A DNA stretch of 24,456 bases, from assembly GCA_035715725.1 (NCBI GenBank), contig DASTKT010000043.1, positions 1 through 24,456 of the forward strand. Direction: 5' to 3'. The notes beneath the pieces are model-generated. The model was not told where the DNA came from. It did no database searches and saw nothing but the letters and a program-made list of their open reading frames with translations. Both the position numbers and the translations under genes were made by a program. Shown here one piece after another: positions 136-21,488 of this stretch. Each line of letters opens with the position of its first letter. Within the stretch, counting starts at the first letter, position 1. Source of the stretch: Longimicrobiales bacterium (lineage in GTDB: Bacteria > Gemmatimonadota > Gemmatimonadetes > Longimicrobiales > RSA9).

Positions 136-244
136 CACCGGGCACCGGAGACTCGCCGGCGTGACGCACCCTCTCTTGATGTCATTCTCCGGCGTACGCC
201 GGCGCCCGGCGTGGGGCCGGTGCGCTGCGGCCGTACCGCTGTGG

Positions 245-325
245 CCTCTGTGCCTCTCTGGTGTGCTTTTAATGGACGTGAGGCCGCGCGAACGTGAGGC
301 CGGACTCGCACTCCGCGCCGGCGGC
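245..325 (-). repeat. Copy of the GGCCTCACGT direct-repeat block (paired 12-mers at 275-286 and 292-303 on the plus strand as GACGTGAGGCC), followed on the minus strand by a degenerate CACACCAGAGAGGCACAGAGG tail. It lies 3' of the VOC gene.
   Basis: See the alignment under 20137-20230. Confidence 0.6.
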
Positions 326-351
326 ACTGCGCCCGGTCTCGACGTCCCGCG

Positions 352-1239
352 TCAGACCAGCCGCACCGCCGTCCCCCACGGGTCCTCGGCGCGGAACCCC
401 TCCGCCGTCCGGGCGACGGGGTAGCCCGCAGCCTCCAGGCTCGCGGCCGCCGCCTCGGCGTCCGCGCGCGACGGCAACACCACCTCCCAGTCCAGCAGCC
501 GCGCATCCTCCTCGCCCGCCGCCGGCGCGCCCGCCGCCCACGTGTTCAGCCCCAGGTGATGGTGGTAGCCGCCCGCCGACAGGAACAGCGCGCCCGGATA
601 GCTCCACACCACCGCGTCCAGCCCGAGCGCGGCGTGGTAGAAGGCCGCGGCCGCCTCCAGCTCGCCGACGTGCAGGTGCACGTGGCCCATCGTCGTGCCG
701 GGCGGCATCCCCGTCCAGCGCTCGCCGCGCCCCGCGGCCAGCACGCCCTCGGCGTCCAGCGGCCGCGTGTCCATGGCGAGCTGCCCGCCCTGCCAGCGCC
801 ACGCGCTCCGCGGCCGATCCGCGTACACCTCGATCCCCAGCCCGTCCGGGTCCCGCAGGTACAGCGCCTCGCTCACGAGGTGATCCGACATCCCGGCGTA
901 CACGCCCGCCCGCTGCAGGTGCGCCAGGAACCGGCCGAGCGCCGCCCGGTCCGGGAGCAGGATCGCGAAATGGTACAGCCCGAGCCGGCCGCGCTGCGGC
1001 ACCGGCCGCGCACCCCGCCGCTCCCGCAGCTCGACCAGCGCCTCTCCGGACTCCGAGCCGAGCACGACCCGGCCCTCATCCCGCTCCAGCTCCCGCAGCC
1101 CCAGCACCTCCCCGTAGTACCGGCGCGACCGCTCCAGCTCCGCGATCTGCAGCCGCACCCGCCCCAGCCGGACCTCCGCCGGCAGCCGGTACACCGGCGG
1201 CGCGATGCCGCGCTCCCCGATCGCCTCGTTCCCCCCCAT
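352..1239 (-). CDS. Two-domain VOC (glyoxalase/bleomycin-resistance/extradiol dioxygenase) family protein, catechol-2,3-dioxygenase-like (CatE-like). Start moved to the internal ATG at 1239 (MGGNEAIG...).
   Basis: Translation shows two tandem VOC modules with His-containing motifs (GHVHLHV, YHHHLGLN). ATG 1239 is preceded by GAGGAGG 6 nt upstream on the minus strand. It lies 37 bp downstream of the DoxX gene on the same strand. Confidence 0.7.
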   Translation of the reverse strand: MGGNEAIGERGIAPPVYRLPAEVRLGRVRLQIAELERSRRYYGEVLGLRELERDEGRVVLGSESGEALVELRERRGARPVPQRGRLGLYHFAILLPDRAALGRFLAHLQRAGVYAGMSDHLVSEALYLRDPDGLGIEVYADRPRSAWRWQGGQLAMDTRPLDAEGVLAAGRGERWTGMPPGTTMGHVHLHVGELEAAAAFYHAALGLDAVVWSYPGALFLSAGGYHHHLGLNTWAAGAPAAGEEDARLLDWEVVLPSRADAEAAAASLEAAGYPVARTAEGFRAEDPWGTAVRLV

Positions 1240-1276: not shown

Positions 1277-1717
1277 TCACACGGTGACGTGGTCCCGACC
1301 GACGCGCGCATCCAGCGAATACGCCCCCGCCCCCGCCAGCGTCAGCGCGAGCAGGCTCGCCAGCAGCACCAGCGGGAACTCGACGCCCATCCCGCCGAAG
1401 AAGCCGTACTTCATGTGCACCAGCAGGATCGCTCCCACCATGTCGATCGCCAGCAACGGCGCCACCAGCCGCGTCAGCGCCCCCAGGATCAGCGCGAGCC
1501 CGCCGAGTGACTCCAGCGCCGTGACCAGCACGCTCGTCACCTCCGGCATCGGCGCCCCGACCTTCGTGAAGAACGCCGCCGTGCCGCCCAGCCCGAACTC
1601 GAACAGCTTCTGTGCGCCGTGCGCCACGAAGATCCCGCCGATCACGACGCGCAGCAGCAGCAGCGCGGCATCGGTCCGCCGGTCGTCCGCCGAAGTCCCA
1701 AGCTCCACCGGAACCAT
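1277..1717 (-). CDS. DoxX family membrane protein (CatD/MhqP-like)
   Basis: The C-terminal 146 aa of ORF 1277..2425 (MVPVELG...LLLLRVVIGGIFVAHGAQKLFEFG...) is a typical multi-TM DoxX. The ATG at 1717 is an internal Met. The upstream part of that ORF is low-complexity G/A/R junk that overlaps the MarR gene in another frame. Confidence 0.8.
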   Translation of the reverse strand: MVPVELGTSADDRRTDAALLLLRVVIGGIFVAHGAQKLFEFGLGGTAAFFTKVGAPMPEVTSVLVTALESLGGLALILGALTRLVAPLLAIDMVGAILLVHMKYGFFGGMGVEFPLVLLASLLALTLAGAGAYSLDARVGRDHVTV

Positions 1718-1794
1718 CCTTTCCCCACCCCGTCGGCTCGTCGTCTCGACGAATACCGCCGCAGGCGACGCGCCGCGCGCAAGCCGCGCCGCCG

Positions 1795-2262
1795 TTACGG
1801 CGACGGCGGCGTCGCCTCCTCCAGAAGCTGCAGCAGCGCCGCCAGCTTCTCCTCCCCCAGGTGCCCGAGCTGCCGCCGGTGCAACGCCGCGAACGGCGCG
1901 TCCAGATCCGCCAGGACCGCCAGCCCCTGGTCCGTGATCCGCGCCATCACCACCCGCCGATCCTCCGCGCTCCGGCCGCGCGCCACCAGCCCCTGCCGCT
2001 CCAGCCGGTCCAGCAGCCGCGTCATGTCCGGGTCCCGCGCGATCAGCCGCCCCGCGATCTCGCCGCACGCCAGCCCCGCGTCCCCCGCCCCACGCAGGAT
2101 TCGCAGCACGTTGTACTGCGCGGCGGAGAGCCCCGAAGGCTTCAGCAGCTCCGCCACCCCCTGCGAGAGCTCGCTGGCCAGCCGCTGGAGCGCGAGAAAC
2201 ACCGCGTGCTCCGGTCCGGAGAACGGTTTCTTCTGCTTGATGGCCGTCGCGATCCGGGTCAT
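1795..2262 (-). CDS. MarR family transcriptional regulator; start ambiguous between ATG 2262 (SD-supported) and ATG 2280 (near-leaderless)
   Basis: Winged-helix MarR core (AQYNVLRILRGAGDAGLACGEIAGRLIARDPDMTRLLDRLERQGLV). ATG 2262 is preceded by GGAGG with a 6-nt spacer. The ORF-track start at 2307 is a TTG. Confidence 0.75.
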   Translation of the reverse strand: MTRIATAIKQKKPFSGPEHAVFLALQRLASELSQGVAELLKPSGLSAAQYNVLRILRGAGDAGLACGEIAGRLIARDPDMTRLLDRLERQGLVARGRSAEDRRVVMARITDQGLAVLADLDAPFAALHRRQLGHLGEEKLAALLQLLEEATPPSP

Positions 2263-2291
2263 GCGTCGCCTCCGGGTCATGGTCCGCAGGA

Positions 2292-2320
2292 AGGATATTC
2301 GTTTCAACGAGCATTGTCAA
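2292..2320 (-). promoter_or_regulatory. Sigma70-like promoter for the MarR-DoxX-VOC operon: TTGACA -35 (rc at 2315-2320), 17-bp spacer, TATCCT -10 (rc at 2292-2297). Overlapped by direct repeats TCAACGAG (2304-2311, 2317-2324), a candidate MarR operator.
   Basis: Read directly on the minus strand: cTCGTTGACAatgctcgttgaaacgaaTATCCTtcctgcggaccATG. The -35 is a perfect consensus. The -10 lies 11 nt from ATG 2280. Confidence 0.5.
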
Positions 2321-2596
2321 CGAGGCGGACATCCAGCCGCGCGGCACCCCGATTTTCGCGCCTTGACAAAGGCTTTGGCGGAGTTGAACACTGGTGCGCC
2401 CGTTCCGCGGCGGGCGGCCTTCCACTCACACTCCGATCCGAGCCTGCAGCGACCCCGAGGAGGGGTCTGGCTCTCACCCGACGCGACCCCCACTCGCGGA
2501 GCGTCCCCGTGCATCGTGGCGGGGCGGTGCGGGGGGACGGGCGTGCCGCGCGGAACGGCTGCGGTCCATTTCGGCATCACACCCAGGAGGCACTCG

Positions 2597-5587
2597 ATGA
2601 GACCGACGAGGTACGTCCTGCCGACCTGCATCGGCCTGGCGCTGAGCCTGGGCGGGGCGGGTGGCCTGGCGGGACAGAGCACCGGGACGGTGCGGGGCAG
2701 GGTGATGGAGGCGGGCTCGGAGCGGCCGCTGGCGGGGGCGCAGGTCTTCATTCCGGGGACGTCGCGAGGCGCGCTGACGAATGCGTCGGGGGAATATGTG
2801 CTCTCCAACGTGACGCCGGGGACGCAGCGGGTGCGGGCGGAGATGCTGGGGTACACGACGGCGGAGCAGCCGGCGTCGGTGGCGGCGGGGCAGGCGGCGA
2901 CGCTGGATTTCCGGCTGTCGCAGAGCGCGGTGAACCTGTCGGAGCTGGTGGTGACGGGGACGCCGGGTGCGGTGCAGAGGAAGTCGCTGGGGAACACGGT
3001 CACGACGGTGAACGTGGCCGAGGTGACGCAGAAGGTGGCGAACCAGAGCGTCGCGGAGCTGCTGCAGTCGAAGGCGCCCGGGGTGACGATCTCGGGCGGC
3101 TCGGGTGAGGCGGGGACGGCGAACAGCATCAAGATCCGGGGCGTGACGTCGCTGACGGCGGGGAACCAGCCGGCGGTGTACGTGGACGGCGTGAAGGTCT
3201 TCAACGGCAGCCTGGGCAACTTCGCGCCGAACTGCTGCTCGGACCAGACGACGTCGCAGCGGACGGACGCGCTGGGCGGGATCACGCCGGAGGACATCGA
3301 GTCGATCGAGGTGGTGAAGGGCCCGGCGGCGGCGACGCTGTACGGCGCGGACGCGGCGGCGGGCGTGATCCAGATCATCACGAAGAAGGGGCGGCCGGGG
3401 CAGCAGAAGCTGCAGTGGGAGGCGAAGGTGCAGGCCGGGACGAGCAGCTGGGGCGCCGACCAGCCGGTGAACTACACGCTGTGCGATGCGGCGAAGATCG
3501 CGGCGAAGAACGCGGCGGGCGCGTTCCTCTGGCCGGGGTGCCAGGGCGTCGCTCCGGGGACGTTCATCAGCCAGAACGTGCTGACGTACGACCCGCGGGA
3601 GATCCGGGATGGCGCGCTGCGCAACTACGCGCTCTCCGTGCGCGGCGGCGGCGAGGCGTACTCGTTCTACCTGGCCGGCAACGTGGACGACGAGGACGGC
3701 GTCTTCTACAACAACTTCTCGAACCGGCGCTCGGCGCGGGCGAACTTCGCGTTCAACCCGATGCCGCAGCTCGACTTCAACGTCAACTTCGGCTACTCGC
3801 AGCAGCACATCCGGCTGCCGAAGAACGACAACGACGCGAACGGCATCATGTTCAACTCGATGCTGTTCAAGCCGGGCGCGCTGAACCCGTGGGGGAACGC
3901 GCTCCAGCCGGACACCGCGAACCTGTACGACAACCAGACGCGGGCCAGCAGCCTGATCCTGGGCGGGACGGCGAACTACCGGCCGTTCCCGTGGTTCAAG
4001 AACCGCCTGACCGTCGGGTACAACCAGACGGTGTCGCAGGCGGACATCTTCTACGCGCCGGGACAGATGGCGGTGCGGCTGGCGGCGGACCCGACGGGCT
4101 ACGTCGCGCAGCGGATCCCGCAGCAGCGGATCTACACGCTCGACTACGCCGGCACGATCTCGACGCCGGTCACGTCGACGATCAACTCCGACTTCTCGCT
4201 CGGCATGCAGTTCATCGCGAACCGCGGGCACTACCTGTACGCGGATGGGACGGGGCTGTCGAGCCCGTTCACGCGGCTGGTGAGCGCGGCGGCGAAGACG
4301 ACGGGGTCGGAGGCGGACTCGGCGGCGAACTCGCTCGGCTTCTTCGGCCAGGAGCAGGTCGGCTTCAGCGACCGGCTGTTCCTGACCGCCGGCGTGCGCA
4401 TGGACAACAGCTCGGTCTTCGGCGACCGGATCAACCGCATCTTCTACCCGAAGATCTCGGCGTCGTACGTCGTCTCGCAGGAGCCGTGGTTCCACCTCGG
4501 CCACGTCGACAACCTGCGCCTGCGCGCCGCGTGGGGGCAGGCCGGCAAGGCGCCGGGCGTCTACGCGGCGACGCGGACCTACTCCGCGTCCGTCGTGACG
4601 CTCGCCAACCACACCTCCGCGCCGGCGGTCATCGACTCGGTCTACGGCAACCCGGACCTGAAGCCGGAGCGGGGCGAGGAGATCGAGGCCGGATTCGACG
4701 CCTCGCTCTTCAACAACCGCGCGGGCGTCGAGTTCACCTACTACAACAAGCACATGCGGAACGGGCTGCTGCGGGTCGACGTGCCGCCCTCGTCCGGCTT
4801 CTCCGGCACGTACCTGCAGAACCTGGCGGAGATCGCGAACCACGGGCTCGAGATCTCGCTCACCGGCACGCCGATCCAGCGCCGCAACCTCTCCTGGGAC
4901 GCGCGCCTCAACCTCGCCACGAACTCCAACAAGCTCGTGAAGTTCGGCGTGGTCCGCCCGCCCATCATCTCCGCGACCTACGCGCCCTCGCAGCGCGTGC
5001 AGGAAGGCTTCCCGGTCTACGGCTTCTGGCGCGTCGACCCGAAGAAGGATGCCAGCGGCAACGTCGTCCTGGTGAACGGCCTGCCGCAGCGCGGCGACTC
5101 CGTCTACGTCGGCCCCTCGCAGCCCACGCGCGAGGCGTTCTTCTCGAGCACGCTCACGATCCTGCGGAACCTGACCGTGTTCGGGCTGCTCGACTACAAG
5201 GGCGGCTTCTACCAGTTCAACGTGCGCGACTGGCGGCGCGCCCGCGCGTTCCTCACGAAGGACGTGCTCGACCCGGGCGCGGACAAGACCCAGGTCGCGC
5301 TCTGGACCAGCACGTTCATCACGACGGATTGGATCCAGCCGGCGGACTTCATCAAGTTCCGCGAGCTCTCGCTCACGTACTCGCTGCCGACCGCCCTCGC
5401 CCAGCAGATCCACGCCGACCGCGCGAGCCTCACGCTCGCCGCGCACAACCTCGGCATCCTCTGGACCCGCTACGGCGGCCTCGACCCCGAGGCGAACTTC
5501 AACGGCGCCGAGGACTTCATCCGCAACGACGCCTGGACCGTCCCGCAGCAGCGCCGCCTGACGGCGTCGCTCAACGTGAGCTTCTGA
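2597..5587 (+). CDS. SusC/RagA-family TonB-dependent outer-membrane receptor with an N-terminal carboxypeptidase-regulatory-like domain
   Basis: ATG 2597 is preceded by AGGAGG with a 6-nt spacer. The translation has a signal peptide, a CarboxypepD_reg-like segment (GTVRGRVMEAGSERPLAGAQVFIPGTSRGALTNASGEYVL) and the SusC/RagA plug signature ITPEDIESIEVVKGPAAATLYGADAAAGVIQIITKKG. The C-terminal residue is Phe. The upstream part of ORF 1619..5587 is antisense to the MarR/DoxX genes. Confidence 0.9.
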   Translation: MRPTRYVLPTCIGLALSLGGAGGLAGQSTGTVRGRVMEAGSERPLAGAQVFIPGTSRGALTNASGEYVLSNVTPGTQRVRAEMLGYTTAEQPASVAAGQAATLDFRLSQSAVNLSELVVTGTPGAVQRKSLGNTVTTVNVAEVTQKVANQSVAELLQSKAPGVTISGGSGEAGTANSIKIRGVTSLTAGNQPAVYVDGVKVFNGSLGNFAPNCCSDQTTSQRTDALGGITPEDIESIEVVKGPAAATLYGADAAAGVIQIITKKGRPGQQKLQWEAKVQAGTSSWGADQPVNYTLCDAAKIAAKNAAGAFLWPGCQGVAPGTFISQNVLTYDPREIRDGALRNYALSVRGGGEAYSFYLAGNVDDEDGVFYNNFSNRRSARANFAFNPMPQLDFNVNFGYSQQHIRLPKNDNDANGIMFNSMLFKPGALNPWGNALQPDTANLYDNQTRASSLILGGTANYRPFPWFKNRLTVGYNQTVSQADIFYAPGQMAVRLAADPTGYVAQRIPQQRIYTLDYAGTISTPVTSTINSDFSLGMQFIANRGHYLYADGTGLSSPFTRLVSAAAKTTGSEADSAANSLGFFGQEQVGFSDRLFLTAGVRMDNSSVFGDRINRIFYPKISASYVVSQEPWFHLGHVDNLRLRAAWGQAGKAPGVYAATRTYSASVVTLANHTSAPAVIDSVYGNPDLKPERGEEIEAGFDASLFNNRAGVEFTYYNKHMRNGLLRVDVPPSSGFSGTYLQNLAEIANHGLEISLTGTPIQRRNLSWDARLNLATNSNKLVKFGVVRPPIISATYAPSQRVQEGFPVYGFWRVDPKKDASGNVVLVNGLPQRGDSVYVGPSQPTREAFFSSTLTILRNLTVFGLLDYKGGFYQFNVRDWRRARAFLTKDVLDPGADKTQVALWTSTFITTDWIQPADFIKFRELSLTYSLPTALAQQIHADRASLTLAAHNLGILWTRYGGLDPEANFNGAEDFIRNDAWTVPQQRRLTASLNVSF

Positions 5588-5622
5588 CCGTGCGAAACCG
5601 AACCGTGACGAGGATCGAGCCT

Positions 5623-6921
5623 ATGCGTACAGCCAGGCGCGGCCGGGCGGCCGGAATCGCCGCCATGTTCGCCGCCGCAATCGCGCTCGGGGCGTGCAGC
5701 AACCTGCTGGACGTCGAGAACCCCGGCGCCATCGTCGAGGACAACCTCAAGGACCCGCAGGTCATCCCCGGGCTGGTCAACGGCGCCGTCGCCGAGTTCC
5801 AGCGCGCCTTCGACGGCGTCGCCTTCTACGGCGGCATCTTCACCGACGAGCTGAACGACTACCAGGTCTTCTTCGAGGACCGCCCGATCGACCTGCGCGA
5901 CGTCACCCCCTCCAACGGGCTGCTCAACTCGTACGTCTACACGCCGCTGCAGCGCGCCCGCGCCGCCGGCGACCACAACGCCGACCGGCTGAAGAGCCTC
6001 CTCGGCGACAAGGCGAGCTCCAGCCTGGACGTGGCCCGCCTGCTCGACTACGCCGGCTACAGCTACCTCCTCCTCGCCGAGACGTACTGCCAGGCGCCGA
6101 TCGACGTCGGCAAGGCGCAGTCGCCCGACGACCTCTTCAAGGCCGCGATCGACCGCTTCAACCAGGCGATCACGATCGCCGCCGCGGCCAGGGCCGCCGG
6201 CGCCAGCGCCGCGTCCGCGGACTCCCTCACCAGCCTCGCCCACGTCGGCGCGGCCCGCGCGGCCCTCGACCGCAACGACAAGGCGACGGCGCTCACGCAC
6301 GCCCAGGCCGTGCCCGCCGCCTTCCAGTTCTGGGTCACGCACTCCGACAACTCGCTCCGCGAGAACAACCTCATCTACGACGCGACGAGGACCGGGAACA
6401 ACTACGCGAGCGTCGACCCCGCGTTCCTCAACCTGAACGACCCGCGCGTGCCGACCGACACGAAGCCGTCTGCCGTCGCATTCAACGTCAGCTTCTTCGC
6501 CTGGATCCCGTACCAGCCCTCCTCCTACGAGAAGTGGAACGGCCAGCTCACGCCGCTCGAGAAGGCCACGTCGATCCGCTTCGCCTCCGGCCTCGAGGCG
6601 CAGTACATCGCCGCCGAGGCGCAGGGCCCGACCGCCGCGACACTGGCGTTCGTCAACGCCCGCCGCACCGTCGGCAAGCAGGCCCCCGTCACCCTCACCG
6701 GCGATGCGCTCATGGCCGAGCTGCGCGATCAGCGCCGCCGCGAGTTCTTCCTCGCCGGCTACCGCATGGGCGACCTGCGCCGCTACAAGCAGTTCTACGC
6801 CGTCGACCAGTTCCCGACCGGCGTGTGGCCCGGCGACCAGAAGTCCGTCTACTCCACCACCGCCACCTGCTTCCCGATCCCGCAGTCCGAGCTGAACGGG
6901 AATCCGAACCTCGGGAGCTGA
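5623..6921 (+). CDS. SusD/RagB-like outer-membrane lipoprotein, cognate partner of the upstream SusC-like receptor
   Basis: It starts 35 bp after the SusC stop and has a lipoprotein signal with lipobox (AAIALGAC). Its size (432 aa), alpha-helical composition and position directly 3' of the SusC-like gene fit the family. ATG 5623 lies within the longer frame of ORF 3415..6921. Confidence 0.7.
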   Translation: MRTARRGRAAGIAAMFAAAIALGACSNLLDVENPGAIVEDNLKDPQVIPGLVNGAVAEFQRAFDGVAFYGGIFTDELNDYQVFFEDRPIDLRDVTPSNGLLNSYVYTPLQRARAAGDHNADRLKSLLGDKASSSLDVARLLDYAGYSYLLLAETYCQAPIDVGKAQSPDDLFKAAIDRFNQAITIAAAARAAGASAASADSLTSLAHVGAARAALDRNDKATALTHAQAVPAAFQFWVTHSDNSLRENNLIYDATRTGNNYASVDPAFLNLNDPRVPTDTKPSAVAFNVSFFAWIPYQPSSYEKWNGQLTPLEKATSIRFASGLEAQYIAAEAQGPTAATLAFVNARRTVGKQAPVTLTGDALMAELRDQRRREFFLAGYRMGDLRRYKQFYAVDQFPTGVWPGDQKSVYSTTATCFPIPQSELNGNPNLGS

Positions 6922-15879: not shown

Positions 15880-16104
15880 GGGGGCGAAGATACGCGCGCG
15901 GTGCGCCGCGTCCAACCCGGCCAGGTCGGCGACGGCCGGTCCGGCCATGGGAGCGCCACGGGGGGCGGTCGATTCACTTCCGCGCGCGGATTGGGCGTTG
16001 AATGGAGGCCGAAGTGCTTCGGCGTCCAAAACCCGCCGTTCCCCGCAACCACCGCGACCGCCGCCCGTATTGCTCTGTACGCCACTTCGTCATTAGGGTC
16101 GTGC

Positions 16105-16881
16105 ATGCACCCGTACCTCTACTGTCTGCTGCTGGGTTTCGCCGGCCTCGTCGCCATGGCGGTCATGGGCGCGTTCGCCCACGGCGGCGGCCACGACCAC
16201 GGCGCCGGCCATGACCATGGCGGCGGCCACGCGGGCGGCGCCGACGGCCACGGCGCCTTCGGCCACCACGCCGGTCACGCCGACTCCGGCGCCGCCGGCC
16301 ATGCCGACGCCCACGGGCACTTCGCCCCCGATGGCGCCCACGCCGCCGGCCACGGCCCCGCCGCCGGCCACCCCCACGCCGGCGAGCACGCGGCCCAACA
16401 CGACCACGGCGGCGGCGCCGTCCGCGGCGCGCTCGGCGGTGCGCTCGCCTGGCTCTCGCCGCGCGTCGCGTTCAGCGTGCTCGTCGGCGTCGGCGCGGTA
16501 GGCACCGCGCTCCGCCCGCTCCTCCCCGCGCCGGCCGTGCTCGCGCTGGCGCTCGTCGGCGGCGTCGCGTTCGAGCGGGTGCTGGTGGGGCCGCTCTGGA
16601 ACCTCGTGTTCCGCTTCGCGTCGCAGCCGGCGGCCACGCTGCAGGACGCGCTCTTCGAGCGGGCCGAGGCGGTGACCGCCTTCAACGCGGCGGGGGAAGG
16701 GATCGTCCGCGTGCTGCTCGGCGGACAGGTCCGGCAGGTCCTGGCGCAGCTCCGGCCGGAGGAGGTCGGCAGCGGCGTGCGCGTCCGCGCCGGCGACGGC
16801 GTCCGCGTCGAGGAGGTGGACGCCGCCCGCGGTCGCTTCGTGGTGTCGTACCTCGGCCGGCTTCCGGCCGAGACCGGGTGA
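16105..16881 (+). CDS. NfeD-like membrane protein with an unusual ~80-aa His/Gly-rich insert (about 25 His; motifs GHDHG, HAGH) between the first TM helix and further TM helices, and a C-terminal NfeD-type beta-barrel domain
   Basis: ATG 16105 is an internal Met of ORF 14722..16881, whose upstream part is antisense to the permease. The C-terminus (GEGIVRVLLGGQVRQVLAQL...GVRVRAGDGVRVEEVDAARGRFVVSY) resembles NfeD OB-fold tails. It sits immediately upstream of an SPFH/flotillin gene, the canonical NfeD-SPFH pairing. Confidence 0.6.
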   Translation: MHPYLYCLLLGFAGLVAMAVMGAFAHGGGHDHGAGHDHGGGHAGGADGHGAFGHHAGHADSGAAGHADAHGHFAPDGAHAAGHGPAAGHPHAGEHAAQHDHGGGAVRGALGGALAWLSPRVAFSVLVGVGAVGTALRPLLPAPAVLALALVGGVAFERVLVGPLWNLVFRFASQPAATLQDALFERAEAVTAFNAAGEGIVRVLLGGQVRQVLAQLRPEEVGSGVRVRAGDGVRVEEVDAARGRFVVSYLGRLPAETG

Positions 16882-16923
16882 GCCACAGGGCCCGCCCGTG
16901 CACCTTGTTCCCGTGAGGAACGT

Positions 16924-18216
16924 ATGCAACTGCAACAGCTTCCGGAGTCGCTGCTGACGATCGGGATCATCGTCTTCGTCGTCCTCGTCGTGGTGCCGTT
17001 CATCGCCACGCGCTTCCTGCGGGACGTGGAGAAGGGCCAGATCCGCATCGTGAGCTGGCTCGGCGGGCGCCCCGCCATCTACCGCGGCCCCGGCAAGTCC
17101 AAGGAGATCCCGCTCCTCACCACGGGCGCGACGATCCCGTCCAGCGCGATCAACGTCGACCTGGACATCACCGACCAGACGGCGGACCGGGATGCGCACG
17201 GCAACCCGCAGCCCATCAAGGTGCAGGTGCTGGCCAGCGCCATCGTCTCGGTCGGTGACACGGACGACATGATCCTGACCGCCGCGAACCGCTTCTTCTC
17301 GAAGAGCGAGAGCGAGCAGACGAGCACGCTGATCGACCTGATGTCGAGCTCGGGGCGTCGCGCCATCAACCTGCTGACGCACAACCAGCTCTTCTCCGCG
17401 GCCGAGGCGCCGAAGGTGGCCGAGGCCGCGGACGACGAGGAGGACCCGCTCGCGGTGATCATCAAGAAGGCATGCTCCCGCGAGCTCACCGACCTCGGGC
17501 TGACGTTCAACTCGCTCAACATCAAGTCGGTGCAGTCCGAGGTCGCGGAGGCGCTGCGCCGGCAGTCCGCGGCCGTCGCCAAGGCCGAGGCCGAGATCGT
17601 CGCGGCCGTGCAGGCCCGCCGCGCCAAGGAGGCACAGCTCGAGGCCGAGCGCGCCATCTCCGACAAGGAGCGCGAGCTCGCCTCGACCCGCGCCGCCAAC
17701 GCGGCGCTCGTCGCCCAGGCCGAGGCGCAGAAGCAGGACGCGCTCGCCGTGCAGCGCCAGGCCGAGCTGCGCGCCACGCAGATCGCGCAGGCCTCCGCCG
17801 ACGCCGAGCGCGTGAAGATCGAGGCGACCGCCAGCGCCGAGGCCGAGGCCATCCGCATCGCCCGCATCGCGGACGCGCAGGCGGAGGCCATCCGCAAGGT
17901 CAACGAGGCGATCCGCCTCGGCGGCGAGGCCTACTTCCGCTACCGCCAGATCGAGATGCTCCCCGACATCGCGCCGGTCGTGGCGGACGCGCTCGGTAGG
18001 GCCCGCCTCGTCACGATCTCCGGCGACGGCAAGGGCGCCGCCTCCGGCACCGCCGACCAGATCGGCCAGGTGCTGAACGCCGTCCTGGCCATGCAGGTCG
18101 TCGGGCAGAGCGGCCTCGTCAACGGCACGCCGGCCATCGAGGCGACGCCGGCGCCGCCCGCGCCCGAGCCGCCGCCGGCCCCGCCGCGCCGCGGCATCGT
18201 GCCCCCGGCGCGGTAG
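16924..18216 (+). CDS. Flotillin-like SPFH (band-7) domain protein with a long Ala/Glu-rich coiled-coil 'flotillin' region
   Basis: N-terminal TM segment, SPFH core, then an extended EA-rich repeat (AEAEIVAAVQARRAKEAQLEAERAI...AEAEAIRIARIADAQAEAIRKVNEAI) as in FloT/YuaG-type flotillins. GAGGAA lies 4 nt before ATG 16924. It is 42 bp after the NfeD gene. Confidence 0.8.
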   Translation: MQLQQLPESLLTIGIIVFVVLVVVPFIATRFLRDVEKGQIRIVSWLGGRPAIYRGPGKSKEIPLLTTGATIPSSAINVDLDITDQTADRDAHGNPQPIKVQVLASAIVSVGDTDDMILTAANRFFSKSESEQTSTLIDLMSSSGRRAINLLTHNQLFSAAEAPKVAEAADDEEDPLAVIIKKACSRELTDLGLTFNSLNIKSVQSEVAEALRRQSAAVAKAEAEIVAAVQARRAKEAQLEAERAISDKERELASTRAANAALVAQAEAQKQDALAVQRQAELRATQIAQASADAERVKIEATASAEAEAIRIARIADAQAEAIRKVNEAIRLGGEAYFRYRQIEMLPDIAPVVADALGRARLVTISGDGKGAASGTADQIGQVLNAVLAMQVVGQSGLVNGTPAIEATPAPPAPEPPPAPPRRGIVPPAR

Positions 18217-18221
18217 GCGCG

Positions 18222-18247
18222 CTCCGGCGGGTCCCGCGGCCGGCCGG
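18222..18247 (+). terminator. 20-bp perfect GC palindrome CCGCGGCCGGCCGGCCGCGG a few bp after the flotillin stop; a possible terminator hairpin
   Basis: Seen directly. No U-tract. Confidence 0.4.
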
Positions 18248-18390
18248 CCGCGGAACCCGCCATCCCGGAGCGGGACACCCACCGGCCGGCGGCGGCGCGG
18301 CACTCTTGTTGCACGCTGACCCCGGCCGGACCGCAACCCCCGGCCTGACCCCCAACGTCATGCCGCAGCACCCTCAGCCGGAAGGCGACG

Positions 18391-18831
18391 ATGCATCACG
18401 TCGATGAGCATCGTCGCCTGATCCTCGTCGCCGACGACAACGCCGAGATCCGCGAGTACTTTCGCAGCGTGCTCACCGAGGCCGGCTACGGCGTCCTGCA
18501 GGCCGCCGACGGGGAGCTGGCCGCGCTGCTCGCGCGGACCTACCGCCCGGACCTCGTCCTGATGGACGTCGCCATGCCGATCATGGATGGGCTGCGCGCC
18601 ATGGAGCTGCTGCGGCTCGACCCGCGCACCGAGCACCTCCCGGTCATCGCCGTGAGCGGCTACGGCCTCGTGGGCGCCGCGATGCGCCGGGCCGGATTCC
18701 AGGCCGTGCTCTCGAAGCCGGTACTGGCGGCGGAGCTGCTCTCCGCCGTCCGCTGCTGGATCGAGCTGGCGCCGGGAGCCACGCTCTCGCGCGCGGTCGC
18801 GGACCTCCGCTCCGAGGGGGTCGACCCATGA
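18391..18831 (+). CDS. Stand-alone CheY-like response-regulator receiver domain protein
   Basis: LILVADDN acidic pocket, LVLMDVAMP phospho-acceptor Asp, VIAVSGYG (conserved S/T) and SKP (conserved Lys). 146 aa with no output domain. GGAAGG precedes ATG 18391. Confidence 0.8.
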   Translation: MHHVDEHRRLILVADDNAEIREYFRSVLTEAGYGVLQAADGELAALLARTYRPDLVLMDVAMPIMDGLRAMELLRLDPRTEHLPVIAVSGYGLVGAAMRRAGFQAVLSKPVLAAELLSAVRCWIELAPGATLSRAVADLRSEGVDP

Positions 18832-19226
18832 CGCGGCCATCGATCGAGAACGGCTGGCTCACGCGCGCCGTGCTCAACGTGCTGCACCAGCGGCGCGATG
18901 CCGGCCACGAGCTGCCGCTGCACGACCTCCAGCTCGCGGTCTGGGGACCGACCCGCCAGGCGCTGCGCCCGCGCCTGCTGCGCGCGCTCAGCACGCTCGA
19001 GCGCGCGGGCCTCGTCTGGACCGGCGCCGAGACGACGATCCGCCCCGGCCACACCACGGTACAGGTCGGCCTGACTCAGGCCGCGCTCGACCGCCTCGGC
19101 CGCGCCGACCTCGACGTCGTGCTGAAGCAGGTCTTCGAGCGCCACGGGATCACGCTCCCCAAGGAGGGGCGCCGCCGCCGCCGCTCGACGCCGCGCGAGG
19201 CGCCGGCCGGGCGCGGCGAAGGCTGA
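18828..19226 (+). CDS. Hypothetical small protein with a putative winged-helix fold, translationally coupled (ATGA overlap) to the receiver gene
   Basis: ATG 18828 overlaps the receiver's stop TGA 18829-18831. The segment RLLRALSTLERAGLVWTG resembles a wHTH recognition helix plus wing. The C-terminus is Arg-rich. The function is not recognisable from sequence alone. Confidence 0.45.
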   Translation: MTRPSIENGWLTRAVLNVLHQRRDAGHELPLHDLQLAVWGPTRQALRPRLLRALSTLERAGLVWTGAETTIRPGHTTVQVGLTQAALDRLGRADLDVVLKQVFERHGITLPKEGRRRRRSTPREAPAGRGEG

Positions 19227-19325
19227 CCGCTGTCCCCCGCCGGCGGACGCGGCCGGGTGGATTCCCGACTGGCGCGGGCGACCCGGCGTCCCCACTATCC
19301 GGATGGACCGGACCACCCGACGCCG

Positions 19326-19360
19326 GGGGCCCGGTGGTTGCGTCCTCCCCACCGGCCACG
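19326..19360. repeat. Degenerate third copy of the REP-like hairpin (ggcCCGGTGGttgcgtccTCCCCACCGGcc) in the intergenic region upstream of the SRPBCC gene
   Basis: It shares the CCCGGTGG...TGC..TCC.CACCGG core with 8477-8521 and 20045-20080. Confidence 0.45.
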
Positions 19361-19406
19361 CCGCGACGCGTGGCCAAACGCTTCCACCAGCCGGAAGGAA
19401 GGGACG

Positions 19407-19916
19407 ATGCTTGCGAACGACCCTCTGGACGGAGCCAGCACCGCAGAACTCGACGGCGCAGATGGAGTGACCCGCGTGGAGGCCGCCGTCCGGATCCACC
19501 TCCCGCGGGACGATGTCTACCAGGCCTGGCACGACCTCCAGCGGCTCCCCCGCCTGATCTCGCAGATCGAGGACGTGGAGGTCCTCCCCGACGGCGACTC
19601 GCGCTGGACCGTGCGCGAACCCGCCGGCCCCGCCCGCTGGCACGCCGAGACCCTCGCCGACGACCCCGGCCACCGCATCGCCTGGCGCACCGTCGGCGAC
19701 GCCGACGTCCGCCACCACGGCGAGGTCACGTTCCAGTGCGTCGGCAACGGCCGCACCACCGAGGTCCGCCTCGCCCTCGCCTGCGACCGCCCGCCCGGCG
19801 CGCACGGTCACGCCGCCGGCGGCCGCCTCGGCGTCCCGGCCGAGGACCAGGCGGCCGAATGGCTCGAGGACTTCAAGCGCGGCCTCGAGGCCGGGAGGCC
19901 GCAGCACCCACGCTGA
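19407..19916 (+). CDS. SRPBCC (polyketide cyclase/dehydrase-like, START/Bet v1 fold) family protein
   Basis: ATG 19407 is preceded by GGAAGGAAGGGA. The 169-aa product has the typical SRPBCC pattern (VTRVEAAVRIHLPRDDVYQAWHDLQRLPRL...HHGEVTFQ). It is an internal Met of ORF 19257..19916. Confidence 0.65.
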   Translation: MLANDPLDGASTAELDGADGVTRVEAAVRIHLPRDDVYQAWHDLQRLPRLISQIEDVEVLPDGDSRWTVREPAGPARWHAETLADDPGHRIAWRTVGDADVRHHGEVTFQCVGNGRTTEVRLALACDRPPGAHGHAAGGRLGVPAEDQAAEWLEDFKRGLEAGRPQHPR

Positions 19917-20044
19917 CCGCCCGGTTCGGCAGCGGCGGGTCACCCTCGGGGACCCGCTCCGGCCCCGCGGCGGCCGAACGTTCCGGGGAGCTCCCGCGGA
20001 GGCGGGAGAATGCCCGGGCGTTCGAGAGTTTCCGGTGAACGTGA

Positions 20045-20080
20045 ACGGCGCCCGGTGGGTTGCTTCCCACCGGGCGCCGT
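20045..20080. repeat. REP-like hairpin, copy 2: 15-bp perfect stem ACGGCGCCCGGTGGG / CCCACCGGGCGCCGT with loop TTGCTT. It lies between convergent genes and is a candidate bidirectional terminator.
   Basis: Seen directly. The core GCGCCCGGTGGG..CCCACCGGGCGC is identical to 8482-8511. Confidence 0.7.
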
Positions 20081-20136
20081 CGATTCTCCGAGGAGCGTCG
20101 ATCTCGTCTTTTCGGTGTTTCGAGCCCGCGCCCAGC

Positions 20137-20230
20137 GCCGCCGGCGCGGAGCCCGAGCCCGGCCTCACGTCCGCGGGCGGCCTCACGTCCGAAAGTGTCA
20201 CACGGAGCCACCGAGGGCACGGAAGAGCCG
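20137..20230 (+). repeat. Roughly 55-bp conserved block GCCGCCGGCGCGGAG..CGAG..CC followed by two direct repeats GGCCTCACGTCCG (20161-20173, 20180-20192) and a CACACGGAGCCAC tail. It is homologous to 245-325 in the opposite orientation.
   Basis: Minus strand of 245-325 reads gccgccggcgcggagtgcgagtccGGCCTCACGTTCGCGCGGCCTCACGTCC. Plus strand of 20137-20192 reads gccgccggcgcggagcccgagcccGGCCTCACGTCCGCGGGCGGCCTCACGTCC. Confidence 0.65.
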
Positions 20231-20336
20231 CGGAGGGCGGCCGCACCCTTCCGGCAGCACCCCGAGCCGCCGGCGTACGCCGGGAATGACATCGTAGGAA
20301 GGTGCGCTCCCCGGCGGTTCTCCAGTGCCCGGTGAC

Positions 20337-20417
20337 CCTCTGAGCCCTCTGCGCCTCTGCGGTGAAAAAGTCCGTTCCCGACCGCAGCCGCGCCCGCGGA
20401 CCGGGCCGAACGCGCCC
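20337..20417 (-). repeat. Copy A of the TTTTCACCGCAGAGG-CGCAGAGGG-CTCAGAGGG module (minus-strand reading). It abuts the stop codon (20418-20420) of the ring-cleaving dioxygenase gene.
   Basis: The plus strand 20347-20369 reads ctctgcgcctctgcggtgaaaaa. The flanking about 50 bp also align with copies at 23205-23283 and 22803-22883. Confidence 0.7.
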
Positions 20418-21488
20418 TCACGCCCCGAGCGGCACCAGCCCGCCCGCGATCTCCTCGCGGGACGCCTCCAGCCAGGCCGGCAGCTTCAGCTCCGTGCCGA
20501 GCGCGCCCGCGGGCTCGTCGACCAGGAAGCCGGGCCCGTCCGTCGCCACCTCGAGCAGCAGCCCGTCCGGGGCGCGGAAGTAGATGCTCCGGAAGTAGAC
20601 GCGCTCCATCACCGGCGAGACGTCCACGCCCAGCTCCAGCAGGTGCTCCCGCCACGCGCGCTGCTCCTCGTCGTCGCGGGCGCGGAACGCGATGTGGTGC
20701 GTCTGGCCGGCGCCGCCACGGCTGAGATAGCTCGAGCCGGCCCAGGCGAAGAGCGTGAGCGCGCTGTGTGGCGCCACGACCCGCCCGTCGTAGCTCGCCC
20801 AGAACCAGTGCGGCGTGCGCAGATCGTCCTGGTTGACGCTCTTCTTCACGACGCGCAGCCCGAGCGCCGCGTGGTAGAACTCGTCGGCCCGCTGGATGTC
20901 GTCCGTGATCCCGGTGATGTGGTGGATCCCCCGCAGCCGCATGTCGGCACCGATCGCCTCGACCGGCTCGGGCCACGTCCGCTGGCGGATCGCCTCCTCG
21001 TCGCGCGCGCCGCGCAGCTCCGCCCCGGGCGGGAGCGTCTCCTTCTGCCCGAGCGCGTCCGCCGGCTCGTCGATCGCGTAGCCCGGCCCCGACGTCGCGA
21101 TCTCCAGGATCTGCCCGTCCGGATCGGCGAAGTAGATGCTGCGGAAGTACCCACGGTCGAACGGACCCGTGACCGCGACGCCGTGGTCCTCCAGCCACCG
21201 CTTCCACCTGAGCTGCGCCTCGGGCGTCTCCACGCCGAGCGCCAGGTGATGCACGCCGCCCACGCCCCAGCGGCCACGCCCCGCGTGCGGCCACTCGAAG
21301 AACGTCAGCAGCGTCCCCGGCTGCCCCGTCTCGTCGCCGAAGTAGAGGTGGTACGAGCCCGGGTCGTCGAAGTTGACCGTCCGCTTCACCACCCCGACGC
21401 CGAGCACCTCCCGGTAGAACGCCAGCGTCCGCCGCGCGTCCGCCGAGACCATCGTGATGTGGTGGAATCCCGCCGTCCGAAGCTCCAT
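20418..21488 (-). CDS. Ring-cleaving dioxygenase, two-domain VOC family (MhqA/MhqE/MhqO/YfiE-like)
   Basis: ATG 21488 is preceded by GGAGGAG. Both halves carry the motifs (GFHHITMVSAD..FYREVLG..VKRTVNFDDP..YHLYFGD in the first; GIHHITGITDD..FYHAALGLRVVKKSVNQDD in the second) characteristic of this dioxygenase family. Confidence 0.8.
   Translation of the reverse strand: MELRTAGFHHITMVSADARRTLAFYREVLGVGVVKRTVNFDDPGSYHLYFGDETGQPGTLLTFFEWPHAGRGRWGVGGVHHLALGVETPEAQLRWKRWLEDHGVAVTGPFDRGYFRSIYFADPDGQILEIATSGPGYAIDEPADALGQKETLPPGAELRGARDEEAIRQRTWPEPVEAIGADMRLRGIHHITGITDDIQRADEFYHAALGLRVVKKSVNQDDLRTPHWFWASYDGRVVAPHSALTLFAWAGSSYLSRGGAGQTHHIAFRARDDEEQRAWREHLLELGVDVSPVMERVYFRSIYFRAPDGLLLEVATDGPGFLVDEPAGALGTELKLPAWLEASREEIAGGLVPLGA

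Follow-up and report, generated by a model that had tools for sequence, protein, structure and literature searches.

We analyzed a 24,456-nt stretch of DNA from a Longimicrobiales bacterium (contig DASTKT010000043.1, positions 1 to 24,456; here, the window), in which G+C content is 73%, together with loci of relatives, which carry labels of the form L001. Two overlapping open reading frames (ORFs) lie on the forward strand. The first, at 18391-18831, starts with ATG and encodes a 146-aa receiver; the second, at 18828-19226, also starts with ATG and encodes a 132-aa protein with a predicted winged-helix fold. The initial annotation described the receiver gene as translationally coupled to a gene for a small basic protein through an ATGA sequence, and both ORFs and the overlap of stop and start codons (18828-18831) are present as described. 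Reading the sequence, we found a Shine-Dalgarno-like GGAAGG (18380-18385) located 5 nt 5' of the receiver ATG and a second such site, GAGGGG (18814-18819), inside the receiver ORF near its 3' end and 8 nt ahead of the ATG of the 132-aa ORF.

At this G+C content, many long ORFs are noncoding, and the 132-aa ORF could in principle be a high-GC artifact or the adjacency of the two genes a matter of chance. The GC content at the three codon positions (GC1/GC2/GC3) is 0.78/0.45/0.93 in the receiver ORF and 0.79/0.54/0.95 in the 132-aa ORF, which matches the pattern of neighboring genes with Pfam matches. Overlapping antisense ORFs do not have a coding-type pattern; the values for the one at 18660-20246 are 0.83/0.63/0.81. 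The 132-aa protein also has homologues down to approximately 27% identity that share invariant motifs, its gene has a dN/dS well below 1, and AlphaFold2 predicts a confident fold. Both genes are coding, and the idea of a spurious ORF or chance neighbor is effectively refuted.

The other genes in the window include those for a glyoxalase, a TonB-dependent receptor, MerR/TipAS, an M20 peptidase, MacB/FtsX, an amino-acid permease, SRPBCC, a second glyoxalase, YceI, MarR, and an aldo-keto reductase. We assigned an aminotransferase gene by synteny with L001 and a SusD-like lipoprotein gene by reading its translation. In the region 1619-6921, a SusC-like TonB-dependent receptor gene with a CarboxypepD_reg domain is followed by this second gene (approximately 5590-6921), the translation of which reads as SusD/RagB-like. 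As initially annotated, the window has no histidine kinase gene; the receiver is therefore an orphan single-domain response regulator.

Residues 11-121 of the receiver match the Pfam family Response_reg (PF00072) with 75.8 bits (3.7e-21; cutoff 30.2 bits), covering the whole 111-position model, and a tail of approximately 25 residues follows the REC domain. Pfam and NCBIfam searches detected no second domain on the 146 residues, which bears out the earlier description of a receiver without an output domain and makes this a single-domain protein; the NCBIfam matches were generic REC matches only, all far below their cutoffs. Residues D15/D16, D59, S89, and K109 align with D12/D13, D57, T87, and K109 of Escherichia coli CheY, and Val occupies the aromatic switch position (CheY Y106). 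The claim that every conserved phospho-relay residue is present thus holds for the catalytic quintet (D15, D16, D59, S89, and K109) but not for the switch position. Judging from the aligned residues, the REC active site is intact.

Neighboring genes and intergenic elements

Two sets of relatives were informative for the surroundings of the pair. In L006, the receiver is 97% and the small protein 98% identical to those of the window, and the gene order is the same: NfeD-like gene, 430-aa gene, receiver gene, small gene, SRPBCC gene. L001 to L005 are five contigs from five samples, in which the small protein is 81% identical to the one in the window and the order is aminotransferase (-), permease (-), small gene (+), SRPBCC (+), and glyoxalase (-), with no receiver gene.

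The pair had been linked to a flotillin/NfeD operon upstream, with flotillin proposed to scaffold a kinase. The 430-aa neighbor is weakly flotillin-like in its C-terminal part (NCBIfam FloT, 40 bits against a cutoff of 700; PDB Flotillin-1, E = 6e-4), and neither SPFH/Band_7 nor any other Pfam family matches it. The ORF at 16105-16881 has no match of any kind, NfeD included, in Pfam, NCBIfam, or PDB sequences. It encodes a membrane protein with a low-complexity insert rich in His, Gly, Ala, and Asp (HGGGHDHGAGHDHGGGHAGG...), and its L006 counterpart is called as 223 aa. The gap between the 430-aa gene and the pair is 174 nt long and contains a strong hairpin as well as a leader that is conserved separately. 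Flotillin-like genes are present in L006 and absent from L001 and all remaining family loci. Relative to L001, the NfeD-like and flotillin-like genes constitute a 2.36-kb indel (15935-18290) that is independent of the adjacent receiver indel. With domains that are weak or undetected, a hairpin in between, and a linkage that is not conserved, we abandoned the flotillin connection.

The hairpin is a GC-rich 18+18-nt palindrome at 18226-18261 (+), just 3' of the stop codon of the flotillin-like gene; its arms are 94% complementary with no spacer, and it resembles a terminator. It is present in L006 and absent in L001, where all of 15935-18290 is missing. The region that follows, 18291-18389 (+), aligns with L006 and L001 and appears to be the leader/promoter region of the receiver-winged-helix unit, with conserved blocks GGCAYTCTTGTTGCACGC, ACGTCATGCCGC, and GCCGGAAKGCGAC. 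In L001, this 99-nt leader (2604-2697, 77% identity) lies directly 5' of the small gene, indicating that the leader is linked to the small gene rather than to the flotillin-like gene. Because a terminator-like palindrome follows the 430-aa gene and the leader stays with the small gene, the pair is probably its own transcription unit. We found no inverted repeat common to the leaders of the window, L006, and L001, and no convincing operator in the leader of the window. A scan of 15900-20450 for sigma-70-like promoters found none; such a scan is uninformative for this phylum.

Leaders of more distant relatives, those encoding a small protein of 112 aa (the 112-aa clade), have a different feature. 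The leader of L010 (5565-5590) and its equivalents in L018, L023, and L014 share GGTATCTCTTTG... followed by an inverted repeat, GGACG-ACGATTGCG-CGTCC, just 5' of the ribosome-binding site. In L014, both arms are altered (GGTACG/CGTACC). Found in only four distinct sequences, the repeat is a candidate for an operator or for a leader hairpin.

The leader of the SRPBCC gene (gene at 19407-19916; leader at 19300-19406) is nearly invariant over approximately 100 nt across the window, L006, and L001, and the genes flanking it are less conserved (approximately 80%) than this noncoding stretch. It includes an inverted repeat with 8-nt arms, GGCCACGC/GCGTGGCC, at 19354-19375; both arms are changed in L001 (GCCGCGC/GCGCGGC). 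An exact 11-mer, CAGCCGGAAGG, followed by GACGATG is common to 19300-19406 and the region around the receiver start (18375-18393). Possibly, the two regions share an element for regulation or for translation initiation.

Direct repeats of GGCCTCACGTCC were initially suggested as plausible targets of the pair. Exact copies occur on the plus strand at 20161 and 20179, approximately 950 nt downstream of the pair, beyond the next gene and between the convergent SRPBCC and glyoxalase genes; on the minus strand, there is an exact copy at 274 and one with a single mismatch at 290. By sequence comparison, these copies belong to a dispersed intergenic element of approximately 100 nt, present at 20120-20240 (+) and 230-352 (-). 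Each copy of the element consists of a tandem GGCCTCACGTCC pair and shared flanks (GCCGCCGGCGCGGAG...CACAC..AG...GGCAC.GA.G.GCC). In both cases, the element is found on the 3' side of a glyoxalase/dioxygenase gene, and the two genes are paralogous. Neither L001 nor L006 has the element, and in L006 a flavodoxin_2/FMN-reductase gene occupies its site; the GGCCTCACGTCC pattern is absent from all relatives' loci examined. Given their distant position and their membership in a dispersed element, we rejected the repeats as an operator for the pair. No Rfam family matches anywhere in the window. Between the SRPBCC gene and the plus-strand copy of the element lie a perfect 15-nt inverted repeat, ACGGCGCCCGGTGGG/CCCACCGGGCGCCGT, with a 6-nt loop (20045-20080) and then a weak terminator-like site (20089-20116).

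The 132-aa protein and its family

The 132-aa protein has no match in Pfam, even at E <= 10, and none in NCBIfam or PHROG. A word-indexed search of 5.8 billion proteins returned only the protein itself and one relative at 81% identity. Searching 1.84 billion cluster representatives without a word index gave seven matches at E <= 1e-3, and a follow-up profile search extended these to 22 clusters, all unnamed or called hypothetical. The relatives likewise have no significant Pfam, NCBIfam, or PHROG assignment; sub-threshold Pfam matches in other members were to MarR_2 (0.013, 2 of 22) and HTH_41 (0.0022, 10 of 22). With no significant profile match, we did not assign the protein to the PadR (PF03551) or MarR (PF01047) sequence families. 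One locus, in a Gemmatimonadetes metagenome-assembled genome, was found in a set of 185,579 species-representative genomes, and all family members with a source name are from Gemmatimonadota. On the basis of these sequence searches, the family is very small and is not represented by an existing Pfam model.

Structure prediction had been proposed as a check on whether the protein has a winged helix-turn-helix, and AlphaFold2 and Foldseek together give a winged-helix fold. The AlphaFold2 model from the 22-sequence alignment has a mean pLDDT of 72.6 (71-86 for 10-residue blocks in the core) and comprises a core at residues 9-105, followed by a disordered, Arg-rich tail. Its predicted elements are helices at residues 9-21, 31-39, 44-60, 84-92, and 95-105 and strands at 28-30, 63-72, and 75-82, which contain the winged-helix topology alpha1-beta1-alpha2-alpha3-beta2-beta3. 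A second run, in which the receiver and the 132-aa protein were concatenated, gave the same elements at pLDDT values mostly of 75-94. The central segment initially interpreted as a recognition helix and wing coincides with the predicted recognition helix H3 (residues 44-60; 18957-19007, +) and the predicted beta-hairpin wing (residues 63-82; 19014-19073, +).

Foldseek matches in the PDB were almost only winged-helix regulators (probability approximately 1.0, E from 2e-3), with TM-scores normalized to the target of 0.45-0.68 for the top matches. They included proteins of the PadR type (3elk, LmrR, 3hhh, 5dym, 6abt, and 4esb), the MarR type (HpaR, AbsC, MftR, and HosA), and the HxlR type (1yyv). 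The best profile-to-PDB sequence match, 2esh_A (TM0937), extends from H1 to the wing with an E-value of 0.1. We regard the winged-helix fold as established, at the level of prediction, with reasonable confidence. Compared with MarR, PadR (subfamily 2: LmrR, 3elk, 3hhh, and 5dym), and HxlR proteins, this family has no significant model match and has motifs of its own; in contrast to MarR, the 132-aa protein does not have long N- and C-terminal dimerization helices.

Two motifs are invariant in the family, L-x-R-x-G (LERAGLVW) and VGLTQxA, and in the family alignment the invariant residues L57, R59, G61, and V80-G81-L82-T83-Q84 fall in the H3/wing region. The protein is basic, as initially described, with a net charge of +9; the net charge is +3 to +12 in the family members tested, all 18 of which are basic. 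An RRRRR stretch at residues 115-119 (19170-19184, +), in the low-confidence C-terminal tail, is shared with the clade of 148-152-aa proteins and missing in the 112-aa clade. From the charge, the Arg-rich tail, and the conserved H3 and wing, the 132-aa protein likely binds DNA.

A winged helix can also serve protein binding, as in kleisin, ESCRT-II, and TFIIE-type complexes, and the 132-aa protein might be an adaptor that relays the state of the receiver to another target. The fold matches do include the non-DNA-binding cohesin Scc1 (6qpq), a retron effector (7v9x), and ADAR1 Z-beta (1xmk), and no member has a significant sequence match to any DNA-binding family. Most of the top structural matches, however, are bacterial or archaeal DNA-binding repressors, all members tested are net basic and several have Arg-rich tails, and the invariant Arg and Gly that close H3, together with a conserved wing, would be typical of winged helices that contact DNA. 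We consider an adaptor role unlikely.

Pairing with the receiver and receiver loss

The small proteins of the 112-aa clade are 35% identical to the 132-aa protein, and in several loci of that clade (L010/L011, L018/L025-L027, and L023) a full-length, stand-alone receiver gene lies directly 5' of the small gene. The gene calls give these receivers 133 aa in L010, L011, and L025 and a start farther upstream in L026/L027; for L020 and L028, the end of the contig falls inside the receiver gene or immediately upstream of it. The REC domain of the L010 receiver is 41% identical to that of the window. By phmmer, receivers of the 112-aa clade score 65-77 bits against the receiver of the window and rank with the best non-self matches listed for it in the 5.8-billion-protein database, where the two matches above them, among those listed, are two-REC proteins. 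All loci with an intact receiver have overlapping stop and start codons, as ATGA in the window, L006, and L023 and as TGATG in L010/L011, L018/L025-L027, and L020. Altogether, a 1- or 4-nt overlap with the receiver gene 5' is found in six lineages (the window, L006, L010/L011, L018/L025-L028, L020, and L023) belonging to two clades, between which identity is 35% for the winged-helix protein and 41% for the receiver. Kinase genes adjoin some loci: two PAS/GAF HisKA kinases lie divergently upstream of the pair in L010, and a PAS/GAF HisKA kinase gene adjoins the small gene in L014. A fixed order and a 1- or 4-nt overlap maintained across this divergence, with kinases adjacent in some loci, argue that the two genes form a functional unit and are not neighbors by accident.

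The initial annotation interpreted the two genes as a split response regulator, with REC and DNA-binding domains on separate polypeptides. The recurrence of the pair and the kinases beside some loci agree with part of this interpretation, but the searches give no support to fission of a fused regulator, which a split would imply. An HMM search of the 1.84 billion representatives without a word index found no fused receiver-winged-helix protein, and the family members among the seven matches there are 109-162 aa long, none with a REC domain. The longer REC homologues of the receiver (230-250 aa) are REC-REC tandems. We therefore rejected a split, or fissioned, response regulator, given that the databases searched contain no fused form.

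Co-occurrence of the two genes in other genomes had been named beforehand as the test that could refute a split regulator, and it partly fails: in L001-L005, the nearest separate lineage at 81% identity, the small gene is present without a receiver gene. Aligned to the window by blastn, L001 has two separate gaps, 15935-18290 and approximately 18390-18793, the latter corresponding to the body of the receiver gene. What survives of that ORF in L001 is its final 65-75 nt, with ccATGA; this noncoding remnant reads ...AVDPRSVSADP* where the window has ...AVADLRSEGVDP*, and the Shine-Dalgarno-like GAGGGG site lies within it. From this alignment, the receiver domain looks to have been deleted in the L001 lineage.

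The receiver is missing or decayed in two or three lineages of the 112-aa clade as well. L014/L015 keep the kinase gene and the leader without a receiver gene, L021/L022 have no receiver gene, and L017/L019 retain only the C-terminal half of the receiver, with an internal deletion that also removes the conserved Lys. Because L023 has an intact receiver and is syntenic with L017 (PPTase and CBM48-like genes), the truncated state is derived. Conservation of the gene neighborhood is thus divided: the pair with its overlap occurs in six lineages of two clades, but the receiver is absent or decayed in at least four lineages of the same clades. Elsewhere in the family, the 148-152-aa clade has no receiver, and its small gene follows an unknown gene of 208-210 aa; the P0024 and P0029 clades have none either. 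No Pfam match was found for the 208-aa, 256-aa, and other upstream neighbors in these other clades. The P0024 homologue (L007-L009) is preceded by an XRE-type HTH gene and followed by several unknown genes and by a SNF2-family helicase gene, with an AAA-domain (AAA_22) gene on its other side, and this region looks like a mobile or defense island.

Whether or not the receiver is present, purifying selection acts on the small gene. Its dN/dS is 0.07 between the window and L006, 0.34 between the window and L001, 0.11 for one receiver-bearing pair, and 0.14-0.20 for pairs that include a locus with no receiver or a truncated one. Since the winged-helix gene is kept and constrained after receiver loss, it must function autonomously, and the receiver looks like an optional accessory input rather than half of a split protein. 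In a neighbor-joining tree, the receiver-bearing clades are not sisters. The remnants in L001 and L017 and the resemblance of receivers across clades favor an ancestral pair with repeated receiver loss, as far as these few lineages indicate; two independent receiver gains are a possible alternative for the same few lineages.

Persistence of the small gene without the receiver can also be understood if the two genes are coexpressed and independent. The winged-helix protein would then be an ordinary regulator, perhaps an autoregulator, of the locus, possibly including the SRPBCC gene, as small regulators of the MarR/PadR type commonly autoregulate. The receiver would be an unrelated single-domain regulator (a phosphate sink, a connector, or the partner of another protein) that merely shares the promoter, and the two proteins would not touch. 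Besides the persistence of the winged-helix gene under purifying selection in many receiver-less lineages, this account draws on the leader, which belongs to the small gene, and on the concatenated AlphaFold2 model, which shows no confident packing of the domains (pTM 0.43; receiver half unfolded, at a pLDDT of approximately 45, because only two sequences cover that half, so that the model is uninformative about an interface). Against it, six lineages across the 35%/41% divergence keep one arrangement of the genes with an overlap of 1 or 4 nt, which is unexpected for functionally unrelated neighbors. Moreover, loss of the receiver is precise and leaves the small gene and its leader intact, suggesting that the receiver is an accessory of this particular unit rather than of some other pathway. 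Independence of the two genes is possible, and we treat it as a serious but doubtful alternative.

A candidate two-gene output module

The interpretation that we prefer, with a probability of roughly 0.5, is that the pair is a two-gene signaling output module, consisting of an autonomous winged-helix factor and an accessory receiver that most likely binds it. Structurally, the 132-aa protein would fall in the MarR/PadR/HxlR class of small winged-helix proteins and would most likely act as a dimeric transcription factor that binds DNA; the overlapping stop and start codons would tie its synthesis to that of the receiver. A kinase encoded elsewhere would phosphorylate D59 of the receiver, and the phosphorylated receiver would most likely bind the winged-helix protein and alter its DNA binding or dimerization. 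In this way, a factor also able to work alone would gain a phosphorylation input from the receiver. For this module, we infer DNA binding, contact between the two proteins, phosphorylation dependence, and target genes. Against the module stand the dispensability of the receiver in cis, the absence of a kinase gene from the window, of a fused form from the databases searched, and of a convincing operator from the leader of the window, and the tiny size of the family, with named members from one phylum and few independent lineages. A stricter version, in which the two proteins make up a phosphorylation-dependent heteromeric response regulator in trans and the factor of L001, L014, and L017 has become independent of a kinase, is one that we hold only tentatively.

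Single-domain response regulators that act by protein-protein contact include CheY (with FliM), DivK, and CpdR (with ClpXP). A large share of bacterial response regulators are single-domain receivers, most of them without a known partner. The receiver of the window resembles CheY, DivK, CpdR, and DrdR in having an intact phospho-acceptor pocket, no output domain, and a proposed target in a separate protein. Here, the receiver gene overlaps the gene for its candidate partner downstream, a member of a winged-helix family not described before, and the receiver has been lost repeatedly. A precedent for the proposed contact is DrdR, a REC protein without an output domain, which binds the transcription factor FleQ; DNA binding by FleQ is reduced as a result (PMC13535131). 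Like OmpR/PhoB regulators (REC and Trans_reg_C), the pair would combine a receiver with a winged helix as a two-component output. Unlike them, it consists of two polypeptides, its winged helix is not Trans_reg_C, no fused form was found in the databases searched, and the putative DNA-binding partner persists without the receiver.

Single-domain receivers and small winged-helix proteins are both known kinds of protein, and their combination appears undescribed; a literature search for a split response regulator or for a single-domain receiver paired with PadR found no paper. What appears to be new is a winged-helix family without a profile model, whose gene is translationally coupled to a stand-alone receiver gene in two distant clades and from which the receiver has repeatedly been lost. 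The practical reach is limited by the tiny size of the family, whose named members occur only in uncultured Gemmatimonadota. For an orphan receiver, the overlapping gene names a concrete candidate partner. If the stricter version is true, a heteromeric regulator acting in trans would have no described counterpart among two-component systems. If the receiver is indeed an input to the winged-helix factor, the receiver-loss variants would represent an evolutionary series for the gain and loss of a regulatory input by a transcription factor, and the intact, half-deleted, and fully deleted receivers beside a conserved winged-helix gene would show that signaling inputs can be modular and disposable.
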